This document shows positions 998 to 54,832 of a DNA stretch of 64,000 nt, in pieces (positions within the stretch are counted from its first letter, which is position 1; the number at the start of each line of letters is the position of its first letter). The stretch is from an uncultured Gammaproteobacteria bacterium (GTDB taxonomy: Bacteria; Patescibacteriota; Patescibacteriia; Veblenbacterales; UBA10138): the NCBI GenBank assembly GCA_964348825.1, contig CAYGDX010000001.1, positions 239,463 to 303,462 of the forward strand. The letters run 5' to 3'. The notes beneath the pieces were generated by a model that was not told the origin of the DNA, ran no database searches, and worked only from the letters and a program-made list of their open reading frames with translations. The translations under genes were made by a program, and so were the position numbers.

Positions 998-1244
998 GTC
1001 ATTGCGAGCGAAGCCCAAAATGGCGAAGCGAAGCAATCATTCACAAAATGACTAATTTCTAATTTCTAAAAAATCCCAAATCCCCAATTTCTAAATTTAG
1101 TTATTAGACATTAGTCATTTTTAGAAATTAGTGATTAGTGATTAGAAATTTAAATAATTTGGATTTATTTAGGATTTCGCCTGCCTGCCGGTAGGCAGGG
1201 ATTTAGTGCTTAGGATTTAAACAAATTACTTATTCTATTAAATT
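998..1244. repeat. Composite intergenic repeat: GTCATTGCGAGCGAAGC..GCGAAGCGAAGCAATC hairpin, AATGACTAATTTCTAATTTCTAAAAAATCC module, CGCCTGCCTGCCGGTAGGCAGGG palindrome, and GATTTATTTAGGATTT..TTAGGATTTAAACAAAT module ending at the gpmI start codon
   Basis: Sub-modules recur at 41887..42127 (near-identical order) and partly at 5091..5178, 10578..10778, 34080..34110, 51968..52147. Confidence 0.7.
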
Positions 1245-2813: not shown

Positions 2814-3004
2814 GTCAATAGCAAATGGCAAATAAAAATGTCATACCGGCTATTGAGCTTGAATCTAGAAAGTAATTGTTTAGAATCACGAATTAAGAAT
2901 CAAGAATCACGAATTTTAGTAGTACTTATCTTGATTCGTTATTCCTGATTCGTGATTCGGGACAATTTGAATTTATAAAAAACTTTTAGTATTACTAAAT
3001 AATT

Positions 3005-4585
3005 ATGTCTGCGAATCCTTTGATTAAACCAGTTGTTCTAATAATCTTAGATGGTTGGGGTGTGGCGCCTCCATCGCGTGGTAATGCGATTACGCAAAGT
3101 GCTACACCAGTATATAAAAAATTAATTACTACTTACCCAACTGTTACTGTACAAGCGGCTGGCGAATCAGTGGGATTACCGTGGGGTGAAATGGGTAATA
3201 GTGAAGTTGGCCACCTCGCGATTGGTTCGGGAAAAATTTTATATCAAGATTTGCCGCGAATTACACGGGCGATTTTGAATAAATCATTTTTTACTAACCA
3301 GGCCTTAGTAGATATTTGTACTAAAGTGAAAGCCGCAGGAAGCGCGCTTCATATTTTAGGTTTGGTTTCAAATGGTGGTGTGCATAGTTCAGTTGAACAT
3401 TTATATGCCACCTTAGAATTAGCTAAAGCACAGGGAGTGAATAACGTTTTTGTACACGCAATTTTAGATGGTCGTGATGTAGTTTTTAATTCGGGTCAGA
3501 ATTTTATTCATGAACTTGAAGCAAATTTACAAAAAATTGGTGTGGGCAAGATTGCAAGTGTATGCGGTCGTTTTTATGCGATGGATCGTGATAACCACTG
3601 GGATAGAATTCAGGCCGCTTATCAAGCCATGGCAAATGGAGTGGGTAAATCAGCTGAGTCCGCGAATGCAGCGATTACCGCTTCATACGAAGCTCGTGTT
3701 TACGATGAAGAATTAGTGCCAACTGTAATCACCTTGGGCGGCAGTCCAATTGGTAAAATACAAAATGGTGATGGTATAATATTTTTTAATTTTAGATCAG
3801 ATCGCGCTCGTCAGTTAACATATGCGTTTACTAAGTCAGAATTTGATAAATGGCCAAGGCCTAAATTAGAACTGGCTGGTTTTGTTACTATGACTGAATA
3901 TGAAAAAGGGTTGGAAGTAGCAGTGGCTTTTCCACCCGAAGTGGTTGATTGGCCACTCGCGCGAGTTTTATCAGAAGCTGGACTCAAACAATTACATTTA
4001 GCTGAGACCGAAAAATACGCGCATGTTACCTATTTCTTTAATGGTGGTCGCGAGCAAGTTTATCCAGGTGAGGATCATATTTTAGTTCCTTCACCAGTGG
4101 TGTCATCTTATGACCAAAAACCATTAATGTCAGCGCGCGGCATAACTGATAAATTATTACACGAGCTGTCACTTAATTCCTATGATTTTTATGTGTTAAA
4201 TTATGCTAATGCCGATATGGTGGGGCACACAGGTAATTTACCGGCTACTGTAAAAGCTGTGGAATTTTTGGATCAATGTTTGGGTGAAGTAGTAGCGGCG
4301 ACATTAGAGGTTGGTGGCGCAGTTTTTATTACCGCTGATCACGGCAATGCTGAAGGAATGATAAATAATCAAACCGGTGAAATTGATAAAGAGCATTCAA
4401 ATACGCCAGTACCGTTTATTATGATAGCGCGAGAGCTTGAAGGTAAAACTATAAGCAGTAGTCACACTTCTGAAGATTTAAGTCGGCTTACACCATCGGG
4501 TGTATTATCCGACGTTGCCCCCACGATTTTGAAAGTGATGGGATTGCCTAAACCTGCTGAAATGACAGGGCAGAGTCTTTTGTAA
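3005..4585 (+). CDS. gpmI: 2,3-bisphosphoglycerate-independent phosphoglycerate mutase, copy 2 (tandem paralogue)
   Basis: Contains ILDGWG, GNSEVGHLAIGSG, HVTYFFNGG, ADMVGHTG and ADHGN motifs. Length 526 aa. Clearly diverged from copy 1. Confidence 0.9.
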   Translation: MSANPLIKPVVLIILDGWGVAPPSRGNAITQSATPVYKKLITTYPTVTVQAAGESVGLPWGEMGNSEVGHLAIGSGKILYQDLPRITRAILNKSFFTNQALVDICTKVKAAGSALHILGLVSNGGVHSSVEHLYATLELAKAQGVNNVFVHAILDGRDVVFNSGQNFIHELEANLQKIGVGKIASVCGRFYAMDRDNHWDRIQAAYQAMANGVGKSAESANAAITASYEARVYDEELVPTVITLGGSPIGKIQNGDGIIFFNFRSDRARQLTYAFTKSEFDKWPRPKLELAGFVTMTEYEKGLEVAVAFPPEVVDWPLARVLSEAGLKQLHLAETEKYAHVTYFFNGGREQVYPGEDHILVPSPVVSSYDQKPLMSARGITDKLLHELSLNSYDFYVLNYANADMVGHTGNLPATVKAVEFLDQCLGEVVAATLEVGGAVFITADHGNAEGMINNQTGEIDKEHSNTPVPFIMIARELEGKTISSSHTSEDLSRLTPSGVLSDVAPTILKVMGLPKPAEMTGQSLL

Positions 4586-5090: not shown

Positions 5091-5178
5091 AGATTTGGAA
5101 TTTAGATATTTTTGATTTATTTAGGATTTTGATATTCGCCTGCCTGCCGGTAGGCAGGGATTTAGGATTTAAGAATTT
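5091..5178. repeat. Upstream repeat module: GATTTATTTAGGATTT + CGCCTGCCTGCCGGTAGGCAGGG palindrome + TTAGGATTTAA, abutting the mutM start codon
   Basis: The same module is seen at 1150..1244 and 41991..42127. Confidence 0.7.
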
Positions 5179-6039: not shown

Positions 6040-6135
6040 ATTTAAAAATTAAAAATCAAAAATAAAAATGACAAATTAAAATTTAAAATTTTTACATTGT
6101 CATTTTGATATTTACATTTTACATTTTGATTTATT

Positions 6136-6828: not shown

Positions 6829-9327
6829 ATGAAGATCAGAAAAATTATCTTGTTATTGTTTTTATTGTTGATTATAACCACATTTTCTTCGTACAGGTTT
6901 ATCTCAATTGAGCAAGGACAGGGTGAAGAATTCACAGAATCAAAATCATTTGTTCTTTTTCAACCTTTTGTTGATTCAAAATATTCCCCAATGGAGGTTA
7001 ATTTATTATTAGCTGTTTTGGGAATAGCCGTTTCAGCTCTACTTTATGCTTTTTTTCTATCTAGGAAGGTCAAAGCGTGTGATAAGGGAACAAAAAAAAT
7101 GCAAGACATAGCTCTGGCAATTCGTGAAGGATCTAATTCTTATTTACGAGTACAATTTAAACGGATTTGGCCACTCATAATAATTATCACTTTGGTTTTG
7201 TTCTTTACTTACACAGGAGATACAAATGCTTTTCGGTGGGGTCGATCTCTTGCGTTTCTTGTTGGAGCATCCTTTAGTTTTTTGGTTGGCTTTGTTGGCA
7301 TGCGTTTGGCTACTGAAGGTAATTTACGTGTAGCAGCCGCGGCCATGAAAGGTTACGGAAAAGCTATGACAATTGGCTATCGTACCGGCACAGTTACTGG
7401 AATGTTAACCGATGGGCTTGGTCTACTTGGTGGAACTTTAATTTTTCTACTGTATGGTGAACAGGCCTACGAAGCTTTACTGGGTTTTGGTTTTGGAGGA
7501 ACTTTAATCGCACTCTTTATGAGAGTCGGTGGGGGAATTTATACTAAGGCCGCTGATGTTGGAGCTGATTTGGTTGGTAAGATAGAAAAAGATATACCAG
7601 AAGACGATCCAAGGAATGCTGCTACAATTGCTGATAATGTAGGAGATAATGTTGGCGATTGTGCTGGTATGTCGGCTGATATTTTTGAGAGCTATGAAGT
7701 TACTATGGTTGCAGCTATGATTTTAGGATTAGCAACTTTTGGTCACAAGGGGGTGATTTTTCCTTTGTTGGTTCGCGGTATCGGTGTGGTAGGATCAATG
7801 ATTAGTACTTATACAGTAAGAGCTGGTGTCAATGATTCTTCTGACAAAGCTTTAAGAAGCGTGCATCGTGGTTTTTGGATTGGGTCGTTTATAAGTATTG
7901 TTGGATTTTTTACCTTAGGATATTTCTATCTTCATTTTGATACTGCTTATTTATTAGCCAATCCAATGTCGGTCGCAGGTTTTCCAGCGGGTAACCCCGA
8001 TACCTTACCAATATTTTTTAATTTAGGTATTTCTGGACTTGATTTACGCCCAGCTTTTACTTGTCTTATTGGTGTATTTATGGCCATTGGTTTGAACAAA
8101 GTAACCAGTTACTACACTCATACTGGACATAAGCCAGTGAAATCGCTCGTTGAGTCGTGTAACACTGGACATGCTACCAATATTATTCAAGGATTTGCAG
8201 TTGGTTATGAAAGTACGGTAGCGTCTTTGGTAGTTATTGCTGTGGCAATTATTATTTCAGTTGTAATTTATGCTGGCACACCACCTTTATTTGTGGCTTA
8301 TGGAATTGCTATGACTGGTATTGGTATGTTGACCCTTACAGGTAATACGATTTCCATGGACGTGTTTGGGCCAGTGGCAGATAACGCTAATGGTATTGGA
8401 GAAATGGGATATAATCAGAAAGAAATGGATGAAACGAATCACGGTAGTTATAAGCGTGCCCGCCAAATCCTAGCTGATCTTGATGCGGTTGGTAATACAA
8501 CTAAAGCAGAAACAAAAGGTATTGCTATCGGCTCGGCTGTAATTGCGGCAGTATCTTTGTTTGCTAGTTTTATAGCTGTGATTGCCGTTGGAAGTGAAGA
8601 TAAAATTTCACTGATGACGGTAATACAATATACCGTTGAAGCTGGTAAGCTTACCTTTGCAGATCCAATTGTATTTGTTGGATTTCTTATTGGTGGGGCC
8701 GTGCCATTTTTATTTAGTAGTATGTTGATTAGGGCAGTTGGTAGAGCAGCGTCTTATATTGTTAAAGAATGTCGGATGCAGTTTCGTGATCCAGATATTT
8801 GGGAAGGAAAGAAAAAGCCTGATTATGGTCGTGTTGTAAATATTTGTACTAATGCGGCTCAGAAAGAATTAATTGGTCCGGGGTTGTTGGCAATTTCAGC
8901 GCCACTGCTAGTTGGTTTTTTGCTTGGACCGTATGCCCTCGGTGGATTTTTAGCCGGTATGATTTTAGTTGGTCAACTCTTGGCTGTATTTATGTGTAAT
9001 TCAGGAGGGGCTTGGGATAATGCGAAGAAAATGATTGAAGACGAGCCAATAACTGAAAACACTGGTAAAGGTAGTGATAAACACAAAGCGTCAGTAACCG
9101 GTGATACAGTTGGAGATCCATTGAAAGATACAGCTGGTCCAGCTATTAATCCATTAATCAAAGTAATGAATATGGTGGCATTGTTAAGTCTTATTGGGGT
9201 GTTGAATTATAATTTATTTACACCACGCATTCCAGGGTCATACTCTATTGCTTTATTTGTTATTATTGCAGCTATTTCAGCTATAGGTTGGGCTGTCTGG
9301 CGAAGTAAAAAAGAAAATGGTAATTAA
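6829..9327 (+). CDS. hppA: Membrane-bound proton/sodium-translocating pyrophosphatase
   Basis: Contains GDNVGDCAGMSADIFESYEVT, NSGGAWDNAKK and GDTVGDPLKDTAGPAINP signatures. The 832 aa include about 50 extra N-terminal residues before the MEVNLLLAV segment. Confidence 0.92.
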   Translation: MKIRKIILLLFLLLIITTFSSYRFISIEQGQGEEFTESKSFVLFQPFVDSKYSPMEVNLLLAVLGIAVSALLYAFFLSRKVKACDKGTKKMQDIALAIREGSNSYLRVQFKRIWPLIIIITLVLFFTYTGDTNAFRWGRSLAFLVGASFSFLVGFVGMRLATEGNLRVAAAAMKGYGKAMTIGYRTGTVTGMLTDGLGLLGGTLIFLLYGEQAYEALLGFGFGGTLIALFMRVGGGIYTKAADVGADLVGKIEKDIPEDDPRNAATIADNVGDNVGDCAGMSADIFESYEVTMVAAMILGLATFGHKGVIFPLLVRGIGVVGSMISTYTVRAGVNDSSDKALRSVHRGFWIGSFISIVGFFTLGYFYLHFDTAYLLANPMSVAGFPAGNPDTLPIFFNLGISGLDLRPAFTCLIGVFMAIGLNKVTSYYTHTGHKPVKSLVESCNTGHATNIIQGFAVGYESTVASLVVIAVAIIISVVIYAGTPPLFVAYGIAMTGIGMLTLTGNTISMDVFGPVADNANGIGEMGYNQKEMDETNHGSYKRARQILADLDAVGNTTKAETKGIAIGSAVIAAVSLFASFIAVIAVGSEDKISLMTVIQYTVEAGKLTFADPIVFVGFLIGGAVPFLFSSMLIRAVGRAASYIVKECRMQFRDPDIWEGKKKPDYGRVVNICTNAAQKELIGPGLLAISAPLLVGFLLGPYALGGFLAGMILVGQLLAVFMCNSGGAWDNAKKMIEDEPITENTGKGSDKHKASVTGDTVGDPLKDTAGPAINPLIKVMNMVALLSLIGVLNYNLFTPRIPGSYSIALFVIIAAISAIGWAVWRSKKENGN

Positions 9328-10577: not shown

Positions 10578-10778
10578 TGTCATTCCCGTGAATCCGCCAT
10601 CCGCCAACTGGTCGGAGGCGGAGGGAATCTAGAAACAAATCGTTTAAATCCTAAATCCGAATATTTAAATCCTAAATAAATCCCAATGACCAAAATCCAA
10701 AAAAGTTTAAAACATTTGAATTTAGAATTTTTGATTTATTTTGGATTTCGGATTTAGTGCTTAGGATTTAAAACAATT
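10578..10778. repeat. Composite intergenic repeat: TGTCATTCCCG-(inserted CCGCCATCCGCC..GGCGGAGG hairpin)-GGAATCTAGAA, then an AT-rich TTTGATTTATTTTGGATTTCGGATTTAGTGCTTAGGATTTAAAACAAT module ending at the mltG start
   Basis: Same family as 1003..1244, 43422..43483 and 51968..52147. Confidence 0.7.
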
Positions 10779-11798: not shown

Positions 11799-11926
11799 TT
11801 TAGTTTGTAACATGCCAGATGACGGAGCAATTAGTTAATATTATTTATCAATCCGATAGTTATCCGATGTGGAGCCCATAGATTTTCCAATGATATTTCT
11901 CTGACACATTATGGGGGTGAACATCC

Positions 11927-11979
11927 CGCACCAGAGCACCAATTAGTGCAATCATAAATCAAATGGTGCTCTTGGTGCG
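11927..11979. other. Inverted repeat (15-bp arms CGCACCAGAGCACC / GGTGCTCTTGGTGCG, 24-nt spacer) downstream of mltG, with no T-tract
   Basis: Read directly. Lacks the U-run of an intrinsic terminator. Confidence 0.5.
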
Positions 11980-12055
11980 TGGATGGTATTGTATAGATTG
12001 AAATTTTAATAGTAGTTTTTTGTAAACTAGTGTCTATCCGATACTAGTTTTTTAG

Positions 12056-12084
12056 TTGACAGAATCGAAAATCTGTGCTAATAT
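12056..12084 (+). promoter_or_regulatory. Near-consensus sigma70-type promoter of the giant ORF (TTGACA-17 bp-TAATAT)
   Basis: TTGACA at 12056..12061, a 17-nt spacer, then TAATAT at 12079..12084. This lies about 75 nt upstream of the ATG at 12158. Confidence 0.7.
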
Positions 12085-12157
12085 ATAGATAACGATACAG
12101 TATCGGATAATATATCGGATACAAAATCGCCTAAAATAAACAAAAAAACAAAAATAT

Positions 12158-15100
12158 ATGAATCCAGTTGAACCTGGGAGTGTTGTAAAATCAACTTCCC
12201 AAGACAACTTAATAAGTACGCCTTCTGACCAAGAATTAATTTCTTTGGCTGAGGCCGCAAAGCTTACCCCATATAGTCAGGAGTATATTTCACTCTTGGC
12301 TAGACGGGGTAAGCTTTTAGCTTGGAAAAAAGGACGCAACTGGTGTACGACTCGCGAGGCGGTACAAAGTTATCTTGATAAACAAACTAAAGATGCTGCC
12401 GAAAAATTAGAACGTCATCAAGTTGTATTAGAATCATCTAAACCAGAAATCAAAGAAGTTAAACCCGGGATTATTTTGTCTCCAGAACAATTACTCCCAG
12501 TTGCAGAAATAAAAGTAGCAACTCCAATTGTTTCAGAAATTAAAGTTAGTCCCGAAATAAAACCAGAAGTGCCTGTGGTTATCCCAGTTGAAAAAGTTGC
12601 TACAGCAGAAAGTTCAGCGGTGCTTGCGGCGCGAGAAATTGCGAATGTGCTCGGAGAAACTTTGGGTGCTAGGTTTGATAGTATCAAACAAGAATTAAAA
12701 CAAGTGAACGAACAAGTAAGTAGATCAGTGCCGGCTTATGCTACACCAGTTCCGTCAGCGGTAGTTGTTAAACAAAATAAAATAAAATCGCACTGGTTTT
12801 ATTTGGCATTATTTTTAATTGCGGTGCCAGTAATTATTTTTAGTTTAACGCAAGGGTTGGCCGAAGATGCGCCAGGCAAACTTTTGGCGTCACTAAAAAA
12901 TGCTTGGACACTTGATGGCCACCGTGCTGGCACCGAAGCCAATGAAGTTTTAATTTTAAATGAAGCTGGAAATATTTCTATCAAAGGTCATATTGAAACT
13001 CAAGGTCAACTTCGCTCGTACGCGCGCGACGGCATCGCGCCAATCGTAGTTGACTCAACAACTAAAATTGAAAAATTAAATGCCGATGCAATTGATGGCT
13101 ATTCTAGTGAGCAATTTAATTTAGCCTTCATCACTAAGCAAGGTAATGTAACGAGTGATGATGTTTACTTAAAAGGTAAGGTAGAAGTTGGACAAATTTT
13201 AGAAGTGAAAGGAGCTACCAAACTTTTGGATGAGTTATTAGTTGGCGGAGGTTTAGGTGTGTGGGGTAAATCTTTTTTTCATAACGATGTGGCAGTGGAT
13301 GGTAAAGTTGATGTTAGTAAATCGCTGGCTGTAAAAAAAGATATTACCGCGGGTGGCAATGTAGTCGCTCAAAATAAAGTAGTGGCAGAAAAAGGTTTGG
13401 AAACTGGTGGTGATATAGTGACCAACAACAATGATATATTTTTGGGTAGCGGTACAATTATTAAAGAAGGTAAAGAATTAATTAAAAATTTAAATGCGGA
13501 GTATTGGAATGGGCAAGCCGCTTCAGATTTTAATTTGGATATGATTACCGACAACGGTGCGGTAACTGATAACCAAATTACTGTGGGTGGAATTAATTCT
13601 ACTGGTACATCTCGCTTCACTGGTCGCACTGAATTACTTGGTGAGACAGTAATTGGTAATTTAGAATCATTAACAGTAAACGGTAAAACTAATTTAAGAA
13701 ATACAGATGTTTCAGGAACTTTGGCGGTGGCTGGTCATGGTTTGTTTTCCAGTTTAGGTGTAGCGGGTAGTGCCGGCGTAATAAATTTATCTTCTAAAGA
13801 ATTTTCTACCACCAACGCTTCAATTGGTGGTAGCTCTAGTAATACTTTGGCGGTAGCGGCTTCATCAACTTTTTCTGGACCAATTAGTGCATCAAATAGT
13901 GTGAGTTTAACTTCAGCTACACCAGCTATTTCAACTAGCGCTGGTGATTTGGTTTTACAATCAAAAGGCGCAACGACTACCGCGAATGTACAAATTGGTG
14001 TGGGTGGCGATGGTTCAACTACGCCTGATCTTTTAGTGCTTGATGTAAAATCTGACGCTACTGATCCAACCGGTACCGATGGCGCAATGTACTACAATAC
14101 TTCAACTGATAAATTCCGTTGTTATGAAAATGCCGCTTGGACTGATTGTGTAGGTGCGGGTGGTGGCGGAGGCTCGACTTTGCAAGCCGCTTACGTTTCC
14201 GGTAATACAATAAGCACCACCACCGATGATGGTGATTTAGCTGTTACTTTGGCCGACACTACTACTGATCGAAATTTTACTGTGACAATTGCCGATGGTG
14301 CGACTGGCACGGTTTCTATTTCTCGAGCCGATGGTGCGGGCACAAGTGACCCATCTCAACTTTTGTTACTTGATAATTTAGATACTAATCGTTCTATAGC
14401 TGATGGTCTTAAAATTCAATCGGCCGCTGGTTTAATAGTTGACGGTATTGATGTATCAGATGCGGAACTTACCAATGCTCTTAATGTTGGTGATAATATT
14501 ATCGCCGGCACCACGGCTGAAATTAATTTTAGTAATTTTGATTTGGCAACTTCCGGTAATATTCAAGTGGCGGCGGGAGTGGGGCTTGATACTAATGGCG
14601 CCGGCAGTTTAACGCTCGGTGTTTCAAACGCCACCACGATTGATATCGCTGGTGGATCTTCTTCCACTGGCTGTACTATTACGAATGCGACTGGTAGTTT
14701 AGTATGTTCCGGAATAAATAGCACTCCAGTTGGGGCAACGTCACCAAGCACTGGTGCTTTTACAACTTTATCGTCAACTGGCGCTACTACTTTAGGAAAT
14801 AATTCTTCAACTGTTGCGGTTGATACTACATCTTGGGATATTTCTTCAGCCGGTGCAATTTCTGGTTTAACAGGATTAACTGTTGCTTCAGGTACGGTTT
14901 CATTGCCTAATGGACAAATCGATAATTCTGAATTAGCTAATTCAACTATTACTTTTGCTGGCGACACTGGTTCTTCAACTACCGCCTTAGGCGCAACTCG
15001 TACGATTGCTGGTGGTGGTGGTTTGACTTCAGCTGATAATAGTTCAGGAACTTTAACTTTAGCAGTTGGAGCTGGCACCGGTATTACTGTTAATGCTGAT

Positions 15101-18100
15101 GATTTAGCTGTTAATCAATCAACTGCTTTTGCTTGGACTGGTCAACAATCTTGGACTGCTACAGTTACAGCCACTGGCGCTTTAGGAGATTTTAATCCGA
15201 CTTTGGGCAATGATACAGATGTTGATACAGTAGCCGGCATTCAAATTGATGCTACTTCAGCTGCCACTGGCGACGCTGATAATTTTTATGGTTTAAATAT
15301 TACTTTGGCTTCAGCCGATGCGACAGTCAATGAGCGAGCAATTGAAATTGGTTCAGGTTGGGATTCAGCTTTATCTGTTGGCGGCTCTTCAATTATTAAT
15401 GGTTCAGGTGTTTTACAATCCGCTGGACTTTCTGGTACTTATTCAAATGCCTTAACTTTATCATCAGCTACTAATTCTATTACCGCTGGCACTTTAATTG
15501 TGGGAGCGGATACTGTAACTGATTTAACTGGTACAGGACTTCAAGTAGTGGCCAATGCTTTGCAAGCTACTTTGGGTACAGATATTACTTCATCTGAAAT
15601 TGCTGATGATAGTATTATGAATGTAGATATTAATTCAGCGGCCGCAATTGCTTTTTCCAAATTAGCCGCGCTGACCTCCGGCAACATTTTAGTGGGCAAC
15701 GGTTCTAATGTAGCAACTAGTGTAGCGATGAGCGGTGATGTGTTAATTTCCAATGCGGGTTTAACAACTATCCAACCTGATGCAGTGGTTTTGGCGACTG
15801 ATACTTCAGGCAGTTATATTGCTACCATTGCCGGAAGCACTCAAGTTGGCGTATCTGGTTCAGGTTTAGAAAATGCGGCAGTATCACTCTCTATTAATAA
15901 TGATTCAATTGGCGATACTCAATTAGCTTTTGATACAGGTCAAACTTTAACTACTACCGCTACGCCACAGTTTGCGCGACTTGGTGTGGGGGTAGCGGCC
16001 GACGCAACTAATATTTTAACTGCCACTTCTACTTCAACTACTGATTTAAGTAAGGTCTTAAATATTTCTCACACTGGCGCCATTACTGGCACTGGTTATG
16101 CTAGTTATTTTTCTAAAACTGGGGCATCCACCACTAATGTTGGTTTATATTCAACTGCTTCGGGTGCTAGTAATAATTACGCCGCGGTTTTTGAGGCGGG
16201 CAATGTTGGTATTGGTGATACAACTCCCAGTTCAAAATTAGAAATTGGCGATGGCACAGATTCATTACAAATTTCAACAGTTGGTGATTTAACTTTTGTG
16301 GATGCTGACGGCGCGGCTTCAATTACTGGTCCAGCCGGCGGCGCTTTAACTATCGCTAGTGGCGCTTCGCAGGCTTTAACTTTAACTGGTAACGCCGCTT
16401 CTATTTGGGATATTGGTGCTAATGTTTTATCTTTGCAAACTACTAACAATGGTGCGATTACTACTGGCACTGGACTTTTAACTTCGGGTGGTAATATAAC
16501 TTTTTCTGGAACTTCTGCGCGCACAATCACTGGACCAAATACTGGCGCCGCCGCGGCCTTAACTTTAACTACCACTGGCAATGGTTCAGGATTAAAATTA
16601 ACTAGCGCGGCTGGGGCCTCTGGCAATTCAGGCGCCATTACTTTGCAAAGTGGTGATACTGCTACTTCCGGAACTTCAGGTGCTATCACAATTGATTCTG
16701 GTGCTGGTGTAACTGCGAATGGTGTGATTACTATTGGTACGACCAACGCACCAACTACTACAATTGGTGGTTGTACTTTTGATCGTGTGGCTGGCAGTAT
16801 GAGTTGTTCGGGAGCAGTTGGTGGTGGTACTGGTACACAAGGTTATTGGAATCGTAGTGGTACAACTTTAAGTCCAGCTACTGCTGGTGATTCTGTTTCA
16901 ACTTCCGGTGCAATTTCTACCACTGGTACTGGCGCTGTTACTTCAGCTGGTACTTTAACTGCTTCAGCCGATTTCACTGCCAATGGTAATGTTCAATTGG
17001 GTGACAACACGGCTGATACTTTAACGATTTATCCAACCGCTTGGACTGCCACGCCAACTATTTCCGGACTTATCACAGCTACTTCTGGAATAACGTCTAA
17101 TGGTACGGCGACTTTTAATACTAACACTAATTTTACTCTAGCTGGTGCTGAAAATGTTTCTCTCACTAACACTACCGCTTCGGCTGATCAATTATCACTC
17201 GCTGTTTCCGGTGTGACCACTGATGCAGTGGATGGTTTAGCTATTGCCTTTACCCAAGCTGACGATGCTGATGCCGCTGATACTAATGCCGCACTTAATA
17301 TTAGTTTAACTTCTTCTTCCACTGACGCTGATACTTTGTATGGTATCAACTTGTCTAACATCACAGCTGGTACAGCAAATGAATACGCCATCAATATTGG
17401 TACAGGTTATGATCGAGGTATTAACTTAGGCGCTAACTCAATTGTTGGTTCAACTGGTATTATTGATTACACTAATTTTGATGTTGATGCTTCTGGCAAT
17501 GTTACTGTTGCCGGCGACTTGGCTGTTAATGGTGGCAATGTTAACTTTGGTGCTACCACTACAATTGGTGATGGTGGCGATGCTTTAACTATTGATTCTA
17601 ATGGAACTTTAACTATTAGTGACGCTACTGTTACTGGTTCCGGCGCTTTAACAGTTACACCAGCTGCGGCGTCCGCTTTGACTTTAGGTACCACTGGTGT
17701 GGGCAACACTACTTCTATTACTTTAGCCACTGACTCAACTGGTGATGCTGAAGTGGTTTTGCCAACTGGTTCGGTTTCTGGTACAGAAATTTTAGATGAC
17801 ACAGTTGTCCTCACTACTGACACAGCTGGTGATTATGTGGCTTCAATTACCGCTGGCGGTGGTTTAACCGGTACAACTTCAGGTGAAGGTTCAACTCCAA
17901 CTCTGGCGGTTGGTGCTGGCACTGGTATTACAGTTAATGCTGATGACGTGGCAATCAATCAAGACACTTCTTTTACTTGGACTAATTCTCACGCCTTTAC
18001 TCTAGCTGGTGCTGAAAATGTTTCTCTCACTAACACTACCGCTTCGGCTGATCAATTATCACTCGCTGTTTCCGGTGTGACCACTGATGCAGTGGATGGT

Positions 18101-21100
18101 TTAGCTATTGCCTTTACCCAAGCTGACGATGCTGATGCCGCTGATACTAATGCCGCACTTAATATTAGTTTAACTTCTTCTTCCACTGACGCTGATACTT
18201 TGTATGGTATCAACTTGTCTAACATCACAGCTGGTACAGCAAATGAATACGCCATCAATATTGGTACAGGTTATGATCGAGGTATTAACTTAGGCGCTAA
18301 CTCAATTGTTGGTTCAACTGGTATTATTGATTACACTAATTTTGATGTTGATGCTTCTGGCAATGTTGATGCCTTAGGTACTCTTACCGCAGGTTCCGCA
18401 AATGAAGTACTTACTTTATCAACTGGCAAAATTGATGCTGACGCTATTACTTTAGCTGCCTCTGGTACTACTGGTTCTACTTCAAGTCGTTCTGGACTTC
18501 AAACTAGTTCTGACGGTTTAACGCTTTTAATGGGTTGTGCTGATGGCCAACTTTTGGAGTGGACTGATGCTAGTGGTTGGGCTTGTGCGGCAGACGATAC
18601 TGGTAGTAGTGGAGCTAGCGTGGAAGAAGGTGACAGTGCGGCTGTGGCGGCTTTATCTGTTCTTGATTTCTTAGCCGCAGATTTTGTAGTATCAGAAAGT
18701 CCAGCCAATGAAGCTAATGTGAGTATTGATTATCCAAATTCTGGCATTACCCGCAAAGCTCAAGCTGAAACAATTTCTGGTGGTTGGACATTTAATACTG
18801 CCGCCACTACTTTCACCACCGCCATAAATGCTAATGGTGGTATTACCACTACCACCGCTGATCAAAATTTAGCTTTTTCAGCTAATGGCGGCGGCGATTT
18901 TGTTTTCAATGTTGATAGCGGTACTTTTGTTTCTATTACTGGAACAGCTGACGGTGAAAGCGCCTTAACCATTGCGGCTGGCAACCTTACTCTAACCGAT
19001 GGCGACCTAGCTGTTTCCGCTGGCGATTTCAACGTCAATCTCGACGACGGCGACACAGTTAATATCGATGGCGATGCCACACCAACCGCTGATTTATTAA
19101 AACTTGGCAATGGTGATACCTCCGCGACTGATGATGTTGATGCTTTGCAAATTACTTTTGCTACGAGTGGTGCCTCAGGTAATTTAATTGATCTTAGTCC
19201 AACTTTTGCGGATTCTGATGCTGGAAACTCAGCCGAAACTTGGAATGCTGTTAATGTTAATGCTTTTACCGTCACCCAAAATGATTCAGGTGGTGCCATC
19301 ACTGGTGTAGTCAATGGTTTTAATTTAGGCAACCTCACAGAATCTCCAACTGGTGATGATGCTATTACTTCTACGGCAATTAAACTTGGAACAGGTTGGG
19401 ATTATATTTTTGATACAGCTGGGTTTGATGTGTTAGGCGCTACTGGTGCTACCACTATTACTGGTAGTGGTGATGGTACTGACGCTTTAACTTTAACTGC
19501 TGGTGATATTTTAGTTACTAATGGTGACCTTGATTTATCAGGTGGCGATTTTAATGTTATTTTGGATGCGGGTGATGGCGTGAACATTACTAAAGGTGCC
19601 GCGCCAACTGTTGATGTATTTTCAATCAATGGCTCAACTTCAACTACTGATGGTGTGGACGGTTTGCAATTAACATTTGGTGTTTCCGCCGCTTCCGGCA
19701 ATGTGATTGATATTACGCCAAGTTATACTGATGCCACAGCTGGTGCTACTTCAGAGACATACAACATTATTGACGTCGATGCTTTTACCGCCACCCAAAA
19801 TGCCACTGGTGACACTGGTTTAATAAATGGTTTAGCGATTGGTGCCTTAACTCAAACTGAAACCGCTGGCGCTTTAACGGCTTATGCTTTAAATATTGGT
19901 TCTGGTTGGGATAGTGTTTTGCGGGTGAATGGTACGGAAGTTGTTGACGCTTCTGGTAACGTGCCGGTAGCTAGAATTAATGGCACCCTCTTTACAGTTC
20001 AAGGTGACAATGCCGCTGGTCGCGCTATAACTCAAGGCAATACTTTAACTATTGCTGGTGGTACTAATTTAACTAGTGTAGATGCCGATACAGATACTGT
20101 TACTATCAACCTTGATGATTCAATTACTCTAGCTGGTGACCTAACAGTGCAAGGTCAGAATGTTAATTTTGATAATGCCACTGATATTGATATTGATGAT
20201 AACACTGCTTCGTCATTTACCATTTCTGAGGGCGCTAATAATTATTTCTTAATTACCACTACTAATGATAGTGAAGTAGTAACTTTAAATTTACCAGCTG
20301 GCGGCGCTACTTCTTTAACTGGCAATCTTTTTACTTCTGACATTGTAAAAACTATTAATATTGGTACTGGCACGGCGGCTGACACTATTAATTTAGGTAC
20401 TGGTACTACTAATCCTGATGCTATAAATATTGGCACTACTGATACTGTTGCTCATGTGATAAGAATTGGTGATAATACTGGTGCCTCTTCTTCTGACATA
20501 GCTATTGCTGACGCACAATGGAGTATAACTACCGCCGGTCTCATCACCACGGCCGATAATTTAGCGGTGAATGGTGGAGATATAACAACAACTGCCACTG
20601 ATCCAAATATTTTTAATACTGGTACAATATCTACTATAGATATTGGCGCTACCGTAACTGGCAACATTACTTTTTCTAATGGCTCTGGTTCTAGTGGTTG
20701 TACTATTGATGGTTCTGGTAACTTAGCTTGTGCAGGTACTATCACTGGTTCAACTTCTGGCGCGCAAGGTTATTGGACTCGTACTAGCACAACATTATCT
20801 CCTACCAACGCCGGCGATAGTATTGATATGCCTTCCGGTACTGGTGTATTTACCCAAACTTACGCTCCAGCCGGCACTACCGTGGCCGCTACTGGTGCGA
20901 CTTTTATTCCAACGTTTGGTGTGCACGCGGATAATCAGACTTTGGTTGGTGTAGCAATTAATCCAGTTACGAATTCCAATGATGACACTGGTGATATTTT
21001 AAATGCTTTAAGTATTGGCACTATCAATGCCACCTTGGCAAGTGAGCGCGCCATTTATATTGGCACGAGTTATGATACTGATTTAGTGTTTGGCGATACT

Positions 21101-24100
21101 ACACCAGTCGTAACTTTTGGTGATGGCGGCAACTTAACTTTCACCGATGGCACTAATACTTTACTCACTTTAACTGACGGTGGAACAGTTGGGAATTTAA
21201 GTGTCAGTGGCGACGTTACTACTACTGGCGATGTGGCGATAAATGGTGGCAATCTAAATTTTGGTGCGGCGACTACGATTGGTGATGGCGGCGATACAAT
21301 TGCTTTTAGTTTGAAAGATAATTCAGCTGATGCTTTAGATGTTCAACAAAGTACTAACAATTACATAAACATCAACACTTCTGATGGTAATGAAAATATT
21401 GCTCTTTCTACTTTACGTCAAACTGGTGGTGATGCTATTTCATTACTTGGTGATTCAATTACGACCGGTACAGCAGTTGGTGTTTCAGCTGATGTTATAA
21501 CCACTGGTGTGGCTTTAGATATTTCTTCAATTTCAACTGTGGCTAGTTCAGCCGATTTAATTCAAGTTGATCACACTGCGACTTATGTTACAACAGTTGC
21601 TAATTCCGGTAATTTACTTGATTTATCACGCGCTTTAACTACTAACACTGGTGGCGCTTTAACTAATAGTGGCGCAGTTGCTACTATCACTTCCAATTGT
21701 ACTCAAACCGCCGGTACTTGTACTGATACCGCAAACATTTTATCACTTACTCAAAGTTATGCTTCAGCTTCGGGAGCAGTTATTAAAACTTCCAATGCTG
21801 GTACGGGTGTTGATATTGAATTAGATAATGCCGAAACAATTGATAACTCTGTCAACGGTACAATCAATCTTGGCACCACAACTTTTAAACTTACTGGCGG
21901 TACCACCATTGTGTCTGATCAAGCTACAGTGGCTTTACTTGATTCTACCACCACCACTATTAATTTTGGTTCAGCCGCCACGGCTGTTAACTTAGCTGAT
22001 GCTGCTATCACTGGCACAATTGATATTGGCGGTGTGACAGCTGATGGCGCTTCAACTATTAATATTGCGACCAACTCTACTTCATCTGATACTTTAGTCA
22101 TTGGCAACTCTAACGCTTCTACTTTAGTTACTTTAACAGGTGGTGATGATTGGTCCATTTCTAATACTGGTGTACTTACATTAGATGGTACAACTTTAGA
22201 CATCAACTCACTTGATTTTGTTGGCGCTGGTACTTTTACTTCAGGTGCGGCAACTAATTTAACTTTAACTCCCGGTACCACTGGTGACTTAGTATTTTCG
22301 ACTGACGCTGATACCACTGCTACATTTTCTGGTTCAGCTGATGGCACAGCTAATGTTATTTTAACAGCTGGTGATTTAACTCTCACTGATGGCGATCTGG
22401 CTGTATCAGCTGGTGATTTCAATGTGACTTTAGATGCTGGTGATGGTGTGACGATTACTAAGAATGCAGTGCCAACGGTTGATATATTTACCATTTCCAA
22501 TACTGGGCAAGGTATCACTACCACTGATGGTGTAGATTCACTGGCTTTAACTTACGTACAAGCTACTAATGCCGCGGCAGTAGCTGGCTCTGCTTTAGAT
22601 ATTTCTGTTACTCAATCCGGTGATGCTTCGGATACGATTCGTGGTATTAATATCAATAATATTACTGGCGGTTCTTCTACCGAAACTGCTTTATCAATTG
22701 GTTCAGGTTGGGACACTGACTTAGCTTTTGTTGATACTTCACCAACTGTAACTATTGGTGGTGGTGGCACTATCACTTTCACTGATGGTACCAACACATT
22801 GTTTAGTATTGCTGATGCCGGTACAACTGGAAATGCTACAACGACTGGCAACTTAGCAGTTAGTGGTGGCGATATTACCACTGGCGCCGCAACGTTTAAT
22901 TTCGTGGCTGGAACAACCACTCTTAATTTAGCCGGCGGTTCTGGTTCCACTGGTTGTACGGTTGATGGTTCAGGCAACCTTACTTGTACTGGTGCAATTA
23001 CGGGTTCAGCTTCTGGTGCGCAAGGTTATTGGACTAGAACTGACAATATTTTAACTGCCACCAATGCCAATGATATTTTATCATTACCTTCTAATGACGC
23101 TGATTCACCAGTACTTAATTTGGCTTCTTCCGCTATCACTGCCAATGGCACAGCTTCTTTAAATCAAGCGGTGACAGTTAGTTCATCCGCCGCCGGTGTA
23201 ACAGCTTATGGTTATAAATTAGCTCTAACTAATAATCCATCTACCAATGCCAATACTTTATATGGTGAATATATTTCTTTTACTGATGCTGGATCGCTAG
23301 CTAATACTGTAACTGGACTTTATGTTGATGCCACCACTGCTAATGCTTCGGATACTACTTATTCAGGGGTTTTTACCGGTGGTAATTTTGGTATTGGTGA
23401 TACAAGTCCAGCTGCTTTATTAACAGTTGGTAGTGGTGATTTATTTCAAGTAGATTCTTCTGGTAATGTTACGGCTGTTGATTTAGCCGTGAATGGTGGA
23501 GATATTACTGGTGCTACCACTATGAACGTCTTTAACACTTCAACCACTATTAATTTAGCCGATGCCGCTATTACTGGCACGATTGATATTGGTGGTGTAT
23601 CAACTAATGGTACAACTACAGTTAATATTGCAACTGAAGGCACCTCAGCTGATGTTATTACAATTGGCAATTCTAATGCTTCCTCAACTGTTGCGATTAC
23701 TGGCGGCAATGACTGGTCAATTGCTGCTAATGGTAATTTTGTTACCTTAGGAACTTTAACTGCTGGCTCAGGTGCGGAAGTTATTACTTTGTCAACCGGT
23801 AAAATTGATGCCGATGCTATTAGTTTAATGACTGCTACGAATGGTGTTGGCACTACTTCAACTGCCTCGGGTTTGGAAGTAGTGAGTGACAAATTATCAT
23901 TATTGCAAGGTTGTACTGATGCTTATATTTTAAAGTGGGAAGAAGATACAGATACTTGGGATTGTGCGGCAGATGCCACTGGCGGTGGAGCAGGTAGTTT
24001 GCAAGGCGCTTATGATGGTACAAATACTATTACGACTTCAGATAATCGTGACATTGCTTTTACTTTGGCCGATACCAACTTAACCAACACCACGCCAGAT

Positions 24101-29902: not shown

Positions 29903-29944
29903 TCCGTCGTCACAAATGTCCGGCCGGACATTTGTGACGACGGA
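29903..29944. promoter_or_regulatory. Perfect 42-bp palindrome TCCGTCGTCACAAATGTCCGG|CCGGACATTTGTGACGACGGA between the giant ORF stop and the PaaX-like gene start
   Basis: Read directly. There is no loop and no T-tract. It may be an operator or a bidirectional terminator. Confidence 0.6.
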
Positions 29945-29966: not shown

Positions 29967-30509
29967 ATGATTAAAAAGAATGAATCAGTAACTCACTTCG
30001 TGTTAAAGTCGTTGGCTGTGGTTGGCAGTATCACAGTAGATTTTTATACTTGGACGAATGATTTACGACGTTGGCAGTACCATTATGAAAGTAATCGTGA
30101 GTGGAAAAATTATTTAAAATATATTAAGGATAAAAATAGATCACGTAAATTATTACATAATTTAAAAAGAAGAAATTATATTAAGATTAATAAAATAGGT
30201 AACAGGGTTATAATTAGTTTAACTGATAAAGGTAAAATGGCAGCACTTAAAAATAGTTTATTACAAACTAAAAAGATGTCAGATAAATATACTGTAGTAA
30301 TTTTTGATATTCCCGAAACAGCACGCTTAGCCAGAGTATTATTTAGAAAATTATTAAAAGAAGCTAGCTTTAAAAAATTACAACAAAGCGTGTGGATATC
30401 AAATTGTGATGCCCATGATATCATGATTAAATTTATTAAAGAGCAAAAAATAGATAAATGGGTTAACGTATTTTATGCTACCGATTTGTTCAAGAAGTTG
30501 AATTTGTAA
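29967..30509 (+). CDS. PaaX-family-like small regulator (N-terminal wHTH-like region plus a C-terminal Cas2-fold/PaaX_C-like segment)
   Basis: The C-terminal YTVVIFDIPETARLARVLFRKLLKEASFKKLQQSVWIS fits the Cas2/PaaX_C pattern (YDIPE...R..L.K.L...GF..LQ.SVW). Length 180 aa, Lys-rich. Confidence 0.5.
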   Translation: MIKKNESVTHFVLKSLAVVGSITVDFYTWTNDLRRWQYHYESNREWKNYLKYIKDKNRSRKLLHNLKRRNYIKINKIGNRVIISLTDKGKMAALKNSLLQTKKMSDKYTVVIFDIPETARLARVLFRKLLKEASFKKLQQSVWISNCDAHDIMIKFIKEQKIDKWVNVFYATDLFKKLNL

Positions 30510-30520
30510 TCGTTATCTAA

Positions 30521-30547: not shown

Positions 30548-30596
30548 CGGAGATGATAATTGTTTTTTTAATTAAAATGTTGTGGATAGGTGGGTG

Positions 30597-34002: not shown

Positions 34003-34268
34003 TTGATACGGAGTGTAAAATTTAGATAATTTAAAATTAAAAAATTAAAATGCAAAATGATAAATTGAAATTTAAAATTTTGGATTTATTTAGGATTTAG
34101 AAATTAGTATTTCTGATTTAATAATTATAGTTTATTGCTTAACGAATGTGTTAATAATTTACACTTACCCTAAGTTATTTGGTTGAGCTCGTTATTTTCC
34201 ACATTTGCTTATTCAGCACTATTCTATTATACTATAAAGCGTCACTTAAAGTAATATCATATTGATTT

Positions 34269-35726: not shown

Positions 35727-36199
35727 ATACATATAAGACGTCATCCTCGCGAAAGCGGGGATCCAGTAAAAATAATCAAGTTATATCGGTTCTGGATTCC
35801 CGCCTCCGCGGGAATGACAGTTGGTTTTTATTTTTGTCAGTGGATCGTGAACGGACTTTATTTTTGGCCGCAGTTGATAGCCAAGGTAATTTCGTCAAAA
35901 CTAAAATAATTAAGCATGGCGGTAATACAGAAAAACTTTTACCACAAATTATTAAATTTATTAATCAGGTATGGGGGAATGGTCTTCCAACCGGTTTGAT
36001 AGTGTCATTACCCAAAGATTTAAGTTTTACCCAAGCGCGGCTTATTTGCGCGGTTGGCAATGTTCTTTCTTATGGTTGGCAAATAAAAGTTTGCCGCCTG
36101 TCAATATTTGATTGGGGTGTTAAAACCATTTCTCTAAAGCGTTTAAAGTGGCAAAGTATGATTAAGGTAGAGTATTATGGTCCGGGAGTGGGTGGTTGA
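35711..36199 (+). CDS. TsaB/YeaZ-like (inactive Kae1 paralogue) N-terminal-domain protein. The real start is probably downstream of the repeat element, around 35835-35870.
   Basis: LFLAAVDSQGNFVKT...SLPKDLSFTQARLICAVGNVLSYGW resembles the TsaB pattern (laiDTS..., GPGSFTGlRig). The first 40 codons of the listed ORF lie inside a repeat. Confidence 0.4.
   Translation: MEKRLDTYKTSSSRKRGSSKNNQVISVLDSRLRGNDSWFLFLSVDRERTLFLAAVDSQGNFVKTKIIKHGGNTEKLLPQIIKFINQVWGNGLPTGLIVSLPKDLSFTQARLICAVGNVLSYGWQIKVCRLSIFDWGVKTISLKRLKWQSMIKVEYYGPGVGG
35740..35818. repeat. Inverted pair of GTCATCCTCGCGAAAGCGGGGATCCAG / CTGGATTCCCGCCTCCGCGGGAATGAC hairpin elements (MITE-like)
   Basis: Two hairpin-repeat copies in opposite orientation about 25 bp apart. 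They overlap the annotated 5' end of the next ORF. Confidence 0.7.
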
Positions 36200-37945: not shown

Positions 37946-38136
37946 AAATAATAATTGATTGTCATGAGTTTGGTGGGAAAGGACTGATAATCTGTGTAAA
38001 ATCACTAATAACTAATGTCTAATTCCTAAAAAATCCTCTCGCTACGCGAGATCTGGCGTAGCCACGACAAATTCCCAAATTTAGTTATTTTTAGAAATTA
38101 GTCCGCCAGCTGGCGGATTAGAGATTAGAAATTTAC

Positions 38137-39518: not shown

Positions 39519-39666
39519 TGTGTCTAGAAATTTAATAATTAAAACTAATTTTATTAATTTTAACATTATGTTTCGAATCTAGAATCTCGAATTTAGAATT
39601 TAGATAAGTATAACTAAAATTCTAGATTCTATATTCTAGCTTCTAACTTCTAAAACAAACATACAT

Positions 39667-41886: not shown

Positions 41887-42127
41887 GTCATTGCGAGCGA
41901 AGCCCCAAAAGGCGAAGCGAAGCAATCTCTCAAAAAAAACTAATGACTAATTTCTAATTTCTAAAAAATCCTAAATCCTAATATCTAATTCCCTGCCTAC
42001 CGGTAGGCAGGCCAAATAAATCTTAAAATCCTAATACTTAAAAAATAAACTTTTTTGATTTATGATTTGGGATTTATTTAGGATTTCGGATTTAGAAATT
42101 AGGATTTAAACAAATATTAGATATTTT
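41887..42127. repeat. Composite intergenic repeat, near-duplicate in architecture of 998..1244 (GTCATTGCGAGCGAAGC hairpin, AATGACTAATTTCTAATTTCTAAAAAATCC, CCCTGCCTACCGGTAGGCAGG, GATTTATTTAGGATTTCGGATTTAGAAATTAGGATTTAAACAAAT)
   Basis: Read directly. Ends at the murF start. Confidence 0.75.
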
Positions 42128-43421: not shown

Positions 43422-43483
43422 TGTCATTCCCGTGGCGTGTCCTGCCGTAGCTTTACGCGAAGGAGGAAGGCGGGAATCCAGAA
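43422..43483. repeat. GTCATTCCCG...CGGGAATCCAGAA hairpin repeat with an expanded loop
   Basis: Family member. See 51968..51997 for the minimal copy. Confidence 0.7.
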
Positions 43484-43680: not shown

Positions 43681-43857
43681 TTAATTTATAATTATTTGAA
43701 CTTTATTGGGATTTGGGGCTTGGAACTTGGGGATTTAAAACCCATTGACTTTTATTGATTTTTAACTTATTTTTACAAAGCCATTTGCTAATAGCTATAG
43801 GCTATCTCGTAAAGAGACACGTGGGTCTCCACGAGACCTTTACGGGTTTACCAACAT

Positions 43858-48525: not shown

Positions 48526-48597
48526 TATCATTCCCTTGAAAAAGGGAATCCAGAAGAGTTTAATGAGTTGTGGATTCCCGCCTTCGCGGGAATGACA
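48526..48597. repeat. Inverted pair of hairpin repeats (TCATTCCCTTGAAAAAGGGAATCCAG and TGGATTCCCGCCTTCGCGGGAATGACA)
   Basis: Same family as 35740..35818. Confidence 0.7.
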
Positions 48598-50198: not shown

Positions 50199-50365
50199 TT
50201 AGATAAATAATGTTATAATGTAAGGAGTAAAAGTTAATATATAAATAAAAAATTTATTAAATTGCATAATTCCCAAATCCCAAGATCCAATCCCCAAGTA
50301 GTGCAAAATATAGTTTACTAAATTTTGGGAATTGGGATTTGGGTCTTGGGGATTTATAGTTTCTT

Positions 50366-51967: not shown

Positions 51968-52147
51968 TTGTCATTCCCGCGGAGGCGGGAATCCAGAATG
52001 TCTAATGACTAATTTCTAATATCTAAAAATCACCAAGATTCAAATCCCAATTCCTAAAATTTTTAATTCTAGCTTCTAACTTCTAGATTCAAAACATTTT
52101 TTATTTGAAATTAAAAAAGTTATCTAAATTAAGTTATTAATTATTTC
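51968..52147. repeat. Composite intergenic repeat (minimal hairpin TGTCATTCCCGCGGAGGCGGGAATCCAGAA + AATGTCTAATGACTAATTTCTAATATCTAAAAATC + TCTAGCTTCTAACTTCTAGATTC-type module)
   Basis: Read directly. Family members at 1003, 10578, 43422 and 41887. Confidence 0.7.
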
Positions 52148-54829: not shown

Positions 54830-54832
54830 TGT

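Follow-up and report, generated by a model that had tools for sequence, protein, structure and literature searches.

Nested families of hairpin-forming repeats in the intergenic gaps of a groundwater Patescibacteria genome

Introduction

What occupies the short gaps between the stop codon of one gene and the start codon of the next in a bacterium with a small genome? The question is raised by a stretch of 64,000 nt (the window: GCA_964348825.1, contig CAYGDX010000001.1, 239,463 to 303,462 of the forward strand; all coordinates below are window positions) from a small-genome groundwater member of the Patescibacteria, in which modular repeats recur between housekeeping genes. The window has a GC content of 38% and nearly all genes are carried on its + strand. 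A first-pass annotation made from the sequence described the repeats as one composite family of at least eight copies, assembled from a hairpin that follows stop codons (module i), a short string (module ii), a palindrome (module iii) and a segment that ends before start codons (module iv), and regarded them as MITE-type (miniature inverted-repeat transposable element) sequences domesticated as terminator, promoter and leader cassettes. All eight loci and all four motifs were recovered in place, far above shuffle expectation.

Our analysis divides this composite into three families: a GC hairpin (family A, module i), a long AT-rich palindrome (family B, modules ii and iv) and a 20-nt GC palindrome (family C, module iii). 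The gaps are probably a mosaic of at least three such unrelated, small, hairpin-forming selfish repeat families, nested in one another and piled up in the spare DNA of a streamlined genome. What was observed directly is their sequence identity, architecture and distribution, together with nesting, insertion in frame and turnover in a sister genome; these observations point to mobility of the repeats as DNA.

An AT-rich palindrome built from heptamer arrays

Modules (ii) and (iv), described at first as separate parts, are approximate reverse complements and constitute the two arms of long AT-rich palindromes. Units of 7-8 nt are repeated along each arm, resembling AAATCCT in the 5' arm and AGGATTT in the 3' arm. 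Family B elements measure 125-165 bp, with arms of 40-70 nt that are 75-84% complementary, and fold with z scores of −4.1 to −5.8 relative to shuffled sequences; copies of the type found in the PVC group (see below) reach ~230 bp and carry end hairpins. In six of eight AT-rich palindromes the A/C-rich arm lies 5' and the G/T-rich arm 3' on both strands, so that transcripts from either direction would fold alike. The string GATTTATTTAGGATTT occurs six times in the window, exactly or with one mismatch, and every occurrence is intergenic. In a profile search of the window, two elements proved complete (10643-10772 and ~41966-42108) and three others were solo right arms; all are again intergenic.

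The complete element at 10643..10772 (arms 10643-10689 and 10725-10772, z −5.1) stops 6 nt short of the mltG ATG. At 41942..42108, module (ii) (41942-41967) is followed by a complete AAATCCT/AGGATTT palindrome (z −5.8; arms ~41966-42027 and 42065-42108), which ends 12-19 nt short of the murF ATG. Solo right arms, that is, module (iv), lie on the + strand at 1156..1219 (an AAATCCT/AGGATTT arm ~19 nt short of the gpmI ATG), at 5108..5177 (adjoining the mutM ATG) and at 34077..34127. The first of these, with its nested palindrome, has an orthologous copy in locus L021 of the nearest genome found, the Patescibacteria metagenome-assembled genome (MAG) H52-bin160_1, which is syntenic with the window across 5 kb at 85-89% nucleotide identity. 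Upstream of the same arm, a (CTAATTT)n palindrome at 1047..1143 (+) pairs module (ii), as its left arm (1047-1072), with a complementary arm at 1118-1143. The region 5' of mraZ holds, at 37990..38136 (+), a pair of complementary arms, one of them (38003-38036) resembling module (ii), broken up by GC mini-palindromes such as CCGCCAGCTGGCGG at 38103-38116. Finally, a solo G-rich arm of the GGGATTT type is found at 43706..43741 (+), behind a GC-rich repeat. The elements at 34077-34127, 37990-38136 and 43706-43741 add to the eight copies first listed, from which the 34077..34127 arm was absent.

The proposed placement of module (iv) directly before start codons holds for gpmI, mutM, mltG and murF and fails for two other genes. 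The palindrome 5' of murJ (50268..50354, with a GGGATTT-type arm at 50325-50354) is a CCCAAAT/ATTTGGG element, similar in architecture and belonging to another sequence family, and lepA is preceded by modules (i) and (ii) only, module (ii) being extended by more periodic A/C-rich units (52004..52090, +). In locus L169, whose MurF shows 43% identity, a string that resembles module (ii), ACTAATTTCTAAATTATAATTTCTAATTTCTAA (4030-4075), begins right at the murF stop codon, and the gap upstream of murF holds GC hairpins of another type, ACCCTGAGG...GAAGGGT.

Most other intergenic regions of the window contain analogous hairpins with a 7-8-nt period drawn from other sequence families, with mutually unrelated unit types (GAATCAC, AAAAATC, GAATCTA, CCCAAAT and TGTTCTA). 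These include a GAATCAC-type palindrome with 39-nt arms at 2874..2967 (z −5.8), an AAAAATC-type palindrome at 6044..6127 and a GAATCTA-type palindrome at 39572..39646, between rsmH and the next gene of the dcw cluster. Among the 33 intergenic regions, 17 have a fold z below −3, compared with 2 of 33 length-matched coding controls, and in 18 the autocorrelation is strongest at a lag of 7 or 8. The ftsX gene (55658-56575) is bracketed by inverted 33-nt TGTTCTA-type arms (55625-55657 and 56589-56621) with 88% complementarity and a separation of 931 nt; 5' of tRNA-Gln, at 57066-57098, there is a third copy.

A 20-nt palindrome nested in the arms

The 20-nt GC palindrome of module (iii) sits inside family B arms, at 1180-1199 and 5139-5158 in right arms and at 41992-42011 in a left arm (three sites in the window versus none expected). 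Its excision in silico leaves GGATTTCG|GATTTAG in a right arm, as seen on comparing 1162-1219 with 10733-10775, and AATTC|CCAAAT in the left arm, as seen on comparison with L015. The arm sequence is thus restored by removal of the palindrome, which indicates insertion at G^GA(T/A)TT without target duplication. A GC hairpin at the end of every arm is not a general feature of family B: such hairpins were present at 39 of 123 arm ends and 163 of 600 controls, a difference that is not significant, and they are clear only in the copies from PVC genomes and the assembly MFD02416.

A GC hairpin of the dRS3/NTS class

Module (i) is an oriented GC hairpin. The ATTCCC-N8-GGGAAT core that characterizes dRS3 occurs four times exactly in the window (0.00 expected from shuffles), and GTCATTSC nine times (2.7 expected); the best copies carry a GTCAT 5' flank and an ATCCAG 3' flank. 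The longer oriented form of dRS3 was redefined in 2025 as NTS, CGTCATTCCCGCGMAVGCGGGAATCYRG, and placed in a class of Ssn-related motifs (SRM), which are single-stranded DNA targets of small GIY-YIG Ssn nucleases in Neisseria and Wolbachia (PMC11893778). Two forms are present in the window, an NTS/SRM type and a variant GTCATTGCGAGCGAAGC-N8-GCGAAGCGAAGCAATC, i.e. GTCATTGCGAG...GCAATC. The degenerate SRM pattern, HGTCWYN(0-2)YYVSBRHN(0-5)WNVSBRGN(0-2)RNCYNB (PMC11893778), is matched strictly at 35739 (+) and 48597 (−), versus 0.1 matches expected from 100 simulations; the copies at 51969 and 35818 miss it by one loop base, and neither the GTCATTGCGAG variant nor the loop-expanded copies match. 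The copies closest to the 28-nt NTS consensus, at 51969, 35818 (−) and 48597 (−), have two mismatches each, one more than the NTS definition allows.

Hairpins were said to follow stop codons, and this is what we find, the distance from stop codon to hairpin being 5-29 nt. The variant form occurs at 998..1038 (+), 12 nt past the eno stop, and at 41887..41927 (+), 29 nt past that of ftsI, while NTS/SRM-type copies with expanded loops occur at 10579..10634 (+), 6 nt past a nucleotidyl-transferase stop, and at 43423..43483 (+), 8 nt past the murF stop. The copy at 51970..51998 (+), 14 nt past the murJ stop, agrees with the Neisseria NTS consensus at 26 of 28 positions. The reported inverted pairs are likewise present, an SRM/NTS pair at 35740..35818 (35740-35766 on the + and 35790-35818 on the − strand) and, between convergent genes, a pair at 48527..48597 (48527-48555 on the + and 48568-48597 on the − strand). 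Eight of nine hairpins share the strand of the gene that ends upstream.

Hairpins are joined to AT-rich arms at 998, 10579, 41887 and 51970, and stand without them at 43423, 35740/35818 and 48527/48597; conversely, AT-rich arms stand alone at 5108, 34077 and 1156. Since each occurs with and without the other, and since the taxonomic ranges of hairpin and arms differ strongly, they are independent co-occurring families and not a single composite element. A GC-rich repeat of ~160 nt (43535-43690, predicted fold z −4.45) lies between the SRM hairpin downstream of murF and the G-rich arm described above, 5' of tRNA-Glu; several copies are present in the sister genome (L015 6049-6249, L019 6360-6547, L028 ~3350-3530), and Rfam contains no match.

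Each of the two forms, NTS-like and GTCATTGCGAG...GCAATC, was found in at least 120 IMG/VR contigs, with frequent inverted pairs ~25 nt apart. In these viral contigs (L026 to L249) the GTCATTGCGAG...GCAATC hairpin very often forms head-to-head inverted pairs at that spacing (e.g., L199 4598-4672 and L200 3190-3264), an arrangement that matches the window pairs at 35740/35818 and 48527/48597.

The gene for an Ssn nuclease is a small GIY-YIG gene (cd10448), typically flanked by such hairpins (PMC11893778). Pfam scans of 28 window proteins revealed no GIY-YIG domain, and a regular-expression search detected no small GIY-YIG open reading frame (ORF) in the window, in 45 genome loci including those of H52-bin160_1, or in 240 viral loci. 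Dependence of family A on an Ssn nuclease in this host is therefore something that we infer from the resemblance of the motifs. Family A may be described as a dRS3/NTS/SRM-class hairpin, a known kind of repeat in a new phylum and a putative Ssn target here.

Family B across phyla

Species-representative assemblies were searched for an exact 25-nt core of family B, allowing a gap of 0-30 nt at the palindrome insertion site. The core was found at 45 loci in 21 assemblies carrying about ten phylum labels, with gaps of 0, 7 or 20 nt. These assemblies comprise seven lineages of Patescibacteria, four Omnitrophota, a PVC-group MAG and a related "uncultured bacterium" with nine copies, two Gammaproteobacteria, one Nitrospirota, and one each of Nitrospinae, Planctomycetia, Syntrophaceae, Dehalococcoidales and Actinomycetes. 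The order of left arm, variable centre and right arm is kept in all of them, at a full-length identity of 63-78% to the window copy. In PVC-like genomes the copies are sharply bounded, fall into genome-specific subfamilies and carry additional GC hairpins at their ends and, in some cases, nested GC mini-hairpins. With regard to a possible duplication of the target site, which the first-pass annotation proposed to look for, most PVC and MFD copies are flanked by TA..TA; Patescibacteria flanks are too AT-rich to judge. Relative to neighbouring genes, the copies occur in every arrangement across phyla (SB 16, BS 11, SS (convergent) 8, BB (divergent) 3).

That the cross-phylum range is an artefact, produced by convergence of low-complexity AT-rich sequence or by MAG contamination, is highly improbable and largely refuted: the sequence is indeed periodic and of low complexity, several matches are on short MAG contigs (L004, 2.8 kb; L044, 8 kb) and the loci labelled Actinomycetes and Gammaproteobacteria have a Patescibacteria-like GC content of 38-42%, but an exact 25-nt match within a common 130-nt architecture exceeds chance, at least nine copies reside in one GC-rich genome, and some copies are embedded in contigs as long as 797 kb (Nitrospirota) and 552 kb (MFD02416) with GC-rich genes on both sides (flank GC 54-56% in PVC-like genomes, 54-58% including the Nitrospirota loci), which cannot be mis-binned. 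Spread of family B between phyla by horizontal transfer would account for this distribution.

Several collections were searched for the repeats. BLAST of a full composite returned no match among PLSDB plasmids or GenBank phages, and module (iv) had no matches in IMG/VR. Searches of the literature with DNA and peptide strings returned no match for the AT-rich element, and a protein-database search gave no candidates for the peptide that it encodes in LepA (see below). The heptamer-array element is apparently undescribed.

In-frame copies and turnover

Copies that interrupt genes in frame were found in other Patescibacteria; in the window all copies are intergenic. In two Zambryskibacteria, LepA contains an in-frame insert of 36 aa that corresponds to one complete hairpin (L034 3923-5836, − strand; L013 ~1-460, − strand). 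LigA of a Moranbacterium contains three in-frame solo-arm inserts (L016 2419-4665, + strand), and a prepilin-peptidase-like protein of a Saccharibacterium contains one insert (L023 1204-2046, + strand). Such location inside genes is a hallmark of the Rickettsia palindromic elements (PMC10969869). A role of the CTAAAT/ATTTAG units as stops in all six frames was considered and rejected: one frame per strand is open, and this frame is used in LepA and in the prepilin-peptidase-like protein.

Comparison with H52-bin160_1 reveals turnover at orthologous sites. Among four orthologous gaps, two retain the element with its nested palindrome and two hold a different element that fills the stop-to-start gap. 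At the site corresponding to 2874..2967, H52-bin160_1 has a different periodic hairpin, and at that corresponding to 6044..6127 it has hairpin (i), a full AAATCCT element and the palindrome. Arm matches are abundant in this genome (29 in 82 kb of H52 loci). Because the whole gap is replaced at the two differing sites, these comparisons give no clean pair of filled and empty sites. The indels that distinguish the members of two orthologous or paralogous pairs, L022/L024 and L035/L040, are unrelated to the element and include no empty site, and a metagenome scan for murF relatives yielded one, at 43% identity, with no filled or empty orthologous site. Contigs from three other samples that encode an identical MurF protein end inside the flanking repeats, including 41942..42108, as expected of multi-copy sequence.

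The description of the repeats as MITE-type and modular is thus supported. They are shorter than 300 bp, non-coding and bounded by terminal inverted repeats of 40-70 nt, lie dispersed at non-homologous loci, form genome-specific subfamilies, nest within one another, are shared between phyla, occur in frame within genes, and give way to a different element in the same gap of a sister genome.

Several observations weigh against a selfish, mobile origin. Neither a transposase nor an autonomous copy nor a clean empty site was found in the loci examined, and transposition is therefore a process that we infer; the genes enclosed by the only inverted pair of copies at a distance of 3 kb (L027) are ordinary housekeeping genes. 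Target-site duplication was not established in the AT-rich flanks of Patescibacteria. Arm complementarity holds at the level of the repeat unit and not as strict base pairs, some cross-phylum records are short and possibly mis-binned MAG contigs, and the search for a small GIY-YIG ORF reported above was negative. In addition, 12 of 13 Patescibacteria copies in tandem gaps have the same orientation and are co-oriented with the flanking genes, which, along with the co-orientation of eight of nine hairpins, could reflect selection for function or a bias in replication strand instead of neutral accumulation.

Possible functions in RNA, recombination and transcription

Each of the remaining alternatives assigns the repeats a function. 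In the first, AU-rich and GC hairpins in mRNA would act as RNase III sites or 3'-end stabilizers and uncouple the stability of neighbouring cistrons, a function that is perhaps secondary. Correia, ERIC and REP sequences offer precedent (PMC10969869), and the strong fold z scores, the location of elements within operon-like gene strings and the 5' position of the A/C-rich arm on both strands are all consistent with it. A structure maintained by selection at the RNA level is less easily reconciled with arms that are complementary by repeat unit, with no clear compensatory changes, or with the equality of the two strands in fold energy and G-U usage (15/31, p=0.48). Apart from tRNAs and the L10 leader, an Rfam scan of the window at gathering thresholds detected nothing, and the matches in three element regions scanned by E-value were all at chance level. 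By analogy with the systems named, RNase III cleavage or 3'-end protection is plausible as a side effect; as the reason for the repeats we consider it rather doubtful. Effects of mRNA hairpins on transcripts are probably by-products.

A second alternative concerns recombination and transformation, whereby an Ssn-type nuclease would trim incoming DNA at the hairpins and the repeats would provide homology for exchange of gene cassettes. For Neisseria NTS, NIMEs (Neisseria intergenic mosaic elements) and minimal mobile elements, cassette exchange following DNA uptake has been proposed, and the hairpin described here is nearly identical to NTS. Whole gaps are swapped between sister genomes whose flanking genes are 85-89% identical, inverted arms lie on either side of genes such as ftsX, and competence machinery as well as gene exchange with Omnitrophota has been reported for Patescibacteria (PMC12455944). 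It is plausible, by the same analogy, that the hairpins limit recombination of incoming DNA as in Neisseria. The AT-rich element, however, is unrelated to any Ssn motif, the window and the fetched loci show no Ssn gene, and no recombination break-points were directly demonstrated at the repeats; as an explanation of the mosaic, recombination control is unlikely.

The domesticated cassette of the first-pass annotation, in which hairpin (i) would terminate the upstream gene and module (iv) would supply a promoter, leader or ribosome-binding site to the downstream gene, fares less well still. The elements do occupy the stop-to-start gap and split the usual operons (e.g., dcw and ftsEX), hairpins and Patescibacteria copies show the co-orientation given above, with the former 5-29 nt past a stop codon, and Correia MITEs carry promoters (PMC10969869). 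In a consensus scan of the window, however, no hairpin is followed by a T-run, the sequence 3' of each being A-rich, and none scored as terminator-like. Canonical terminators with hairpin and T-run are present elsewhere in the window (~9350, 31820-31867, 37770 and 54831-54868), so the repeats are not needed for termination. Similarly, no σ70-like site (at least 9 of 12 matches to the −35 and −10 hexamers, spacing of 16-18 nt) was detected in module (iv) within 1150-1244, 5100-5178 or 10700-10778, and promoter-like sites in the window as a whole number 46, compared with 43 in shuffles. The distance from AGGA to ATG is inconsistent, varying from 16 to 32 nt. This variable spacing and the results of the scans lead us to regard domestication as terminator or promoter as unsupported, a view reinforced by copies in other phyla, which show either orientation and lie in convergent gaps or inside ORFs, and by the unrelated elements found in orthologous gaps. 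We therefore hold this explanation to be decidedly improbable. The G-free, C-containing 5' arm was also considered as a rut-like (Rho-loading) site.

Comparison with known repeat systems

The gaps of the window are a mosaic of the NIME/BIME kind, and each family can be compared with known systems. In Neisseria, dRS3 and RS repeats together constitute the NIMEs. Family A shares with dRS3/NTS the ATTCCC-N8-GGGAAT core, the GTCAT and ATCCAG flanks, the intergenic location, the inverted pairs and the assembly into mosaics with other modules. It differs in its two or more mismatches to NTS, where one is the limit, in the GTCATTGCGAG...GCAATC variant that falls outside the SRM pattern, in having AT-rich heptamer arrays rather than RS elements as partners, and in that no ssnA was seen in the available sequence; its host belongs to the Patescibacteria, a phylum that PMC11893778 does not mention.

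Family B resembles the Rickettsia palindromic elements, which are also palindromic, AT-rich, ~100-150 bp long and located both between and within genes in the reduced genomes of host-dependent bacteria. The likeness is one of architecture and in-frame location. The element described here has arms composed of 7-8-bp unit arrays and about ten labelled phyla as its range, in contrast to a single genus, and its window copies are all intergenic. Correia, ERIC, RUP and Nezha MITEs are likewise small, AT-rich and dispersed near gene ends, with terminal inverted repeats and hairpin-forming transcripts, and the TA flanks of PVC-type copies are a possible further likeness; they differ in that the arms of family B are internally periodic, with no recognizable promoter or IHF site, and that neither a cognate transposase nor an autonomous insertion sequence was identified.

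Family C can be compared with the REP/BIME sequences of enterobacteria, which are also short GC palindromes in intergenic DNA that associate with other repeats in modular mosaics and insert without target duplication. The 20-nt palindrome is shorter than most REPs and has no GTAG-type head, and no RAYT gene was detected. GC palindromes nested in AT-rich spacers are also known from yeast mitochondria, as mobile GC clusters. Both comparisons are analogies only.

Neighbouring genes

Pfam identifies the genes adjoining the repeats as eno, two gpmI paralogues, mutM, mltG/YceG, ftsI, murF, murJ, lepA and mraZ. The gpmI paralogues, which encode cofactor-independent phosphoglycerate mutase, are arranged in tandem (1245-2813 and 3005-4585) with a periodic palindrome between them. 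An H+-pyrophosphatase gene (6829-9327) is missing at the syntenic position in H52-bin160_1 (L021 5545-5797), where the nucleotidyl-transferase gene comes immediately after PAP2.

A giant ORF of 5901 aa (12158-29863) contains numerous internal direct repeats, the longest being 300 nt at 100% identity (17132-17431 and 17996-18295). The 359 nt 5' of it (11799-12157) include at least five TATCCGATA/TATCGGATA motifs, which may be operator sites, and a good σ70-like site at 12056-12084. Downstream, a gene for a protein with a PaaX/Cas2-like domain (29967-30509) lies between CCGGCCGG-centred palindromes at 29903-29944 and ~30520-30550; the first of these has a perfect 19-bp stem, and the fold of the whole gap has a z score of −10.

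A model for the mosaic and its significance

The mosaic of selfish repeats that we favour may have arisen as follows. Family A would spread as hairpin repeats, often in inverted pairs. Family B would amplify within genomes and land in either orientation, being tolerated at gene ends and, by way of its one open frame, inside genes, and would have passed from phylum to phylum within shared groundwater and sediment habitats. The family C palindrome would insert into family B arms at G^GA(T/A)TT. All would accumulate in the short gaps between genes, the sole spare DNA of a streamlined genome.

A bolder and quite speculative extension, to which we attach little weight, is that the heptamer palindrome together with a lineage-specific GC hairpin cap (Ssn-type in Patescibacteria, others in PVC-like genomes) represents a class of mobile elements that lack a transposase, are moved via single-stranded DNA by hairpin-specific nucleases such as GIY-YIG Ssn, and spread by transformation among groundwater bacteria, including Patescibacteria and Omnitrophota, remodelling intergenic gaps and essential proteins.

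Patescibacteria are regarded as extremely streamlined, yet a large share of the intergenic DNA in this window probably consists of selfish repeats. Such repeats fragment short-read assemblies, whose contigs end there, and their recognition during annotation avoids spurious small ORFs and false calls of regulatory RNAs. With this hairpin, the range of Ssn/NTS-class sequences grows to include a phylum whose lifestyle is believed to centre on DNA uptake. The in-frame copies in lepA and ligA indicate that the AT-rich element can reshape essential proteins, as Rickettsia palindromic elements do in Rickettsia, and its presence in so many lineages would make it a marker for the horizontal flow of DNA between ultra-small bacteria and their neighbours.

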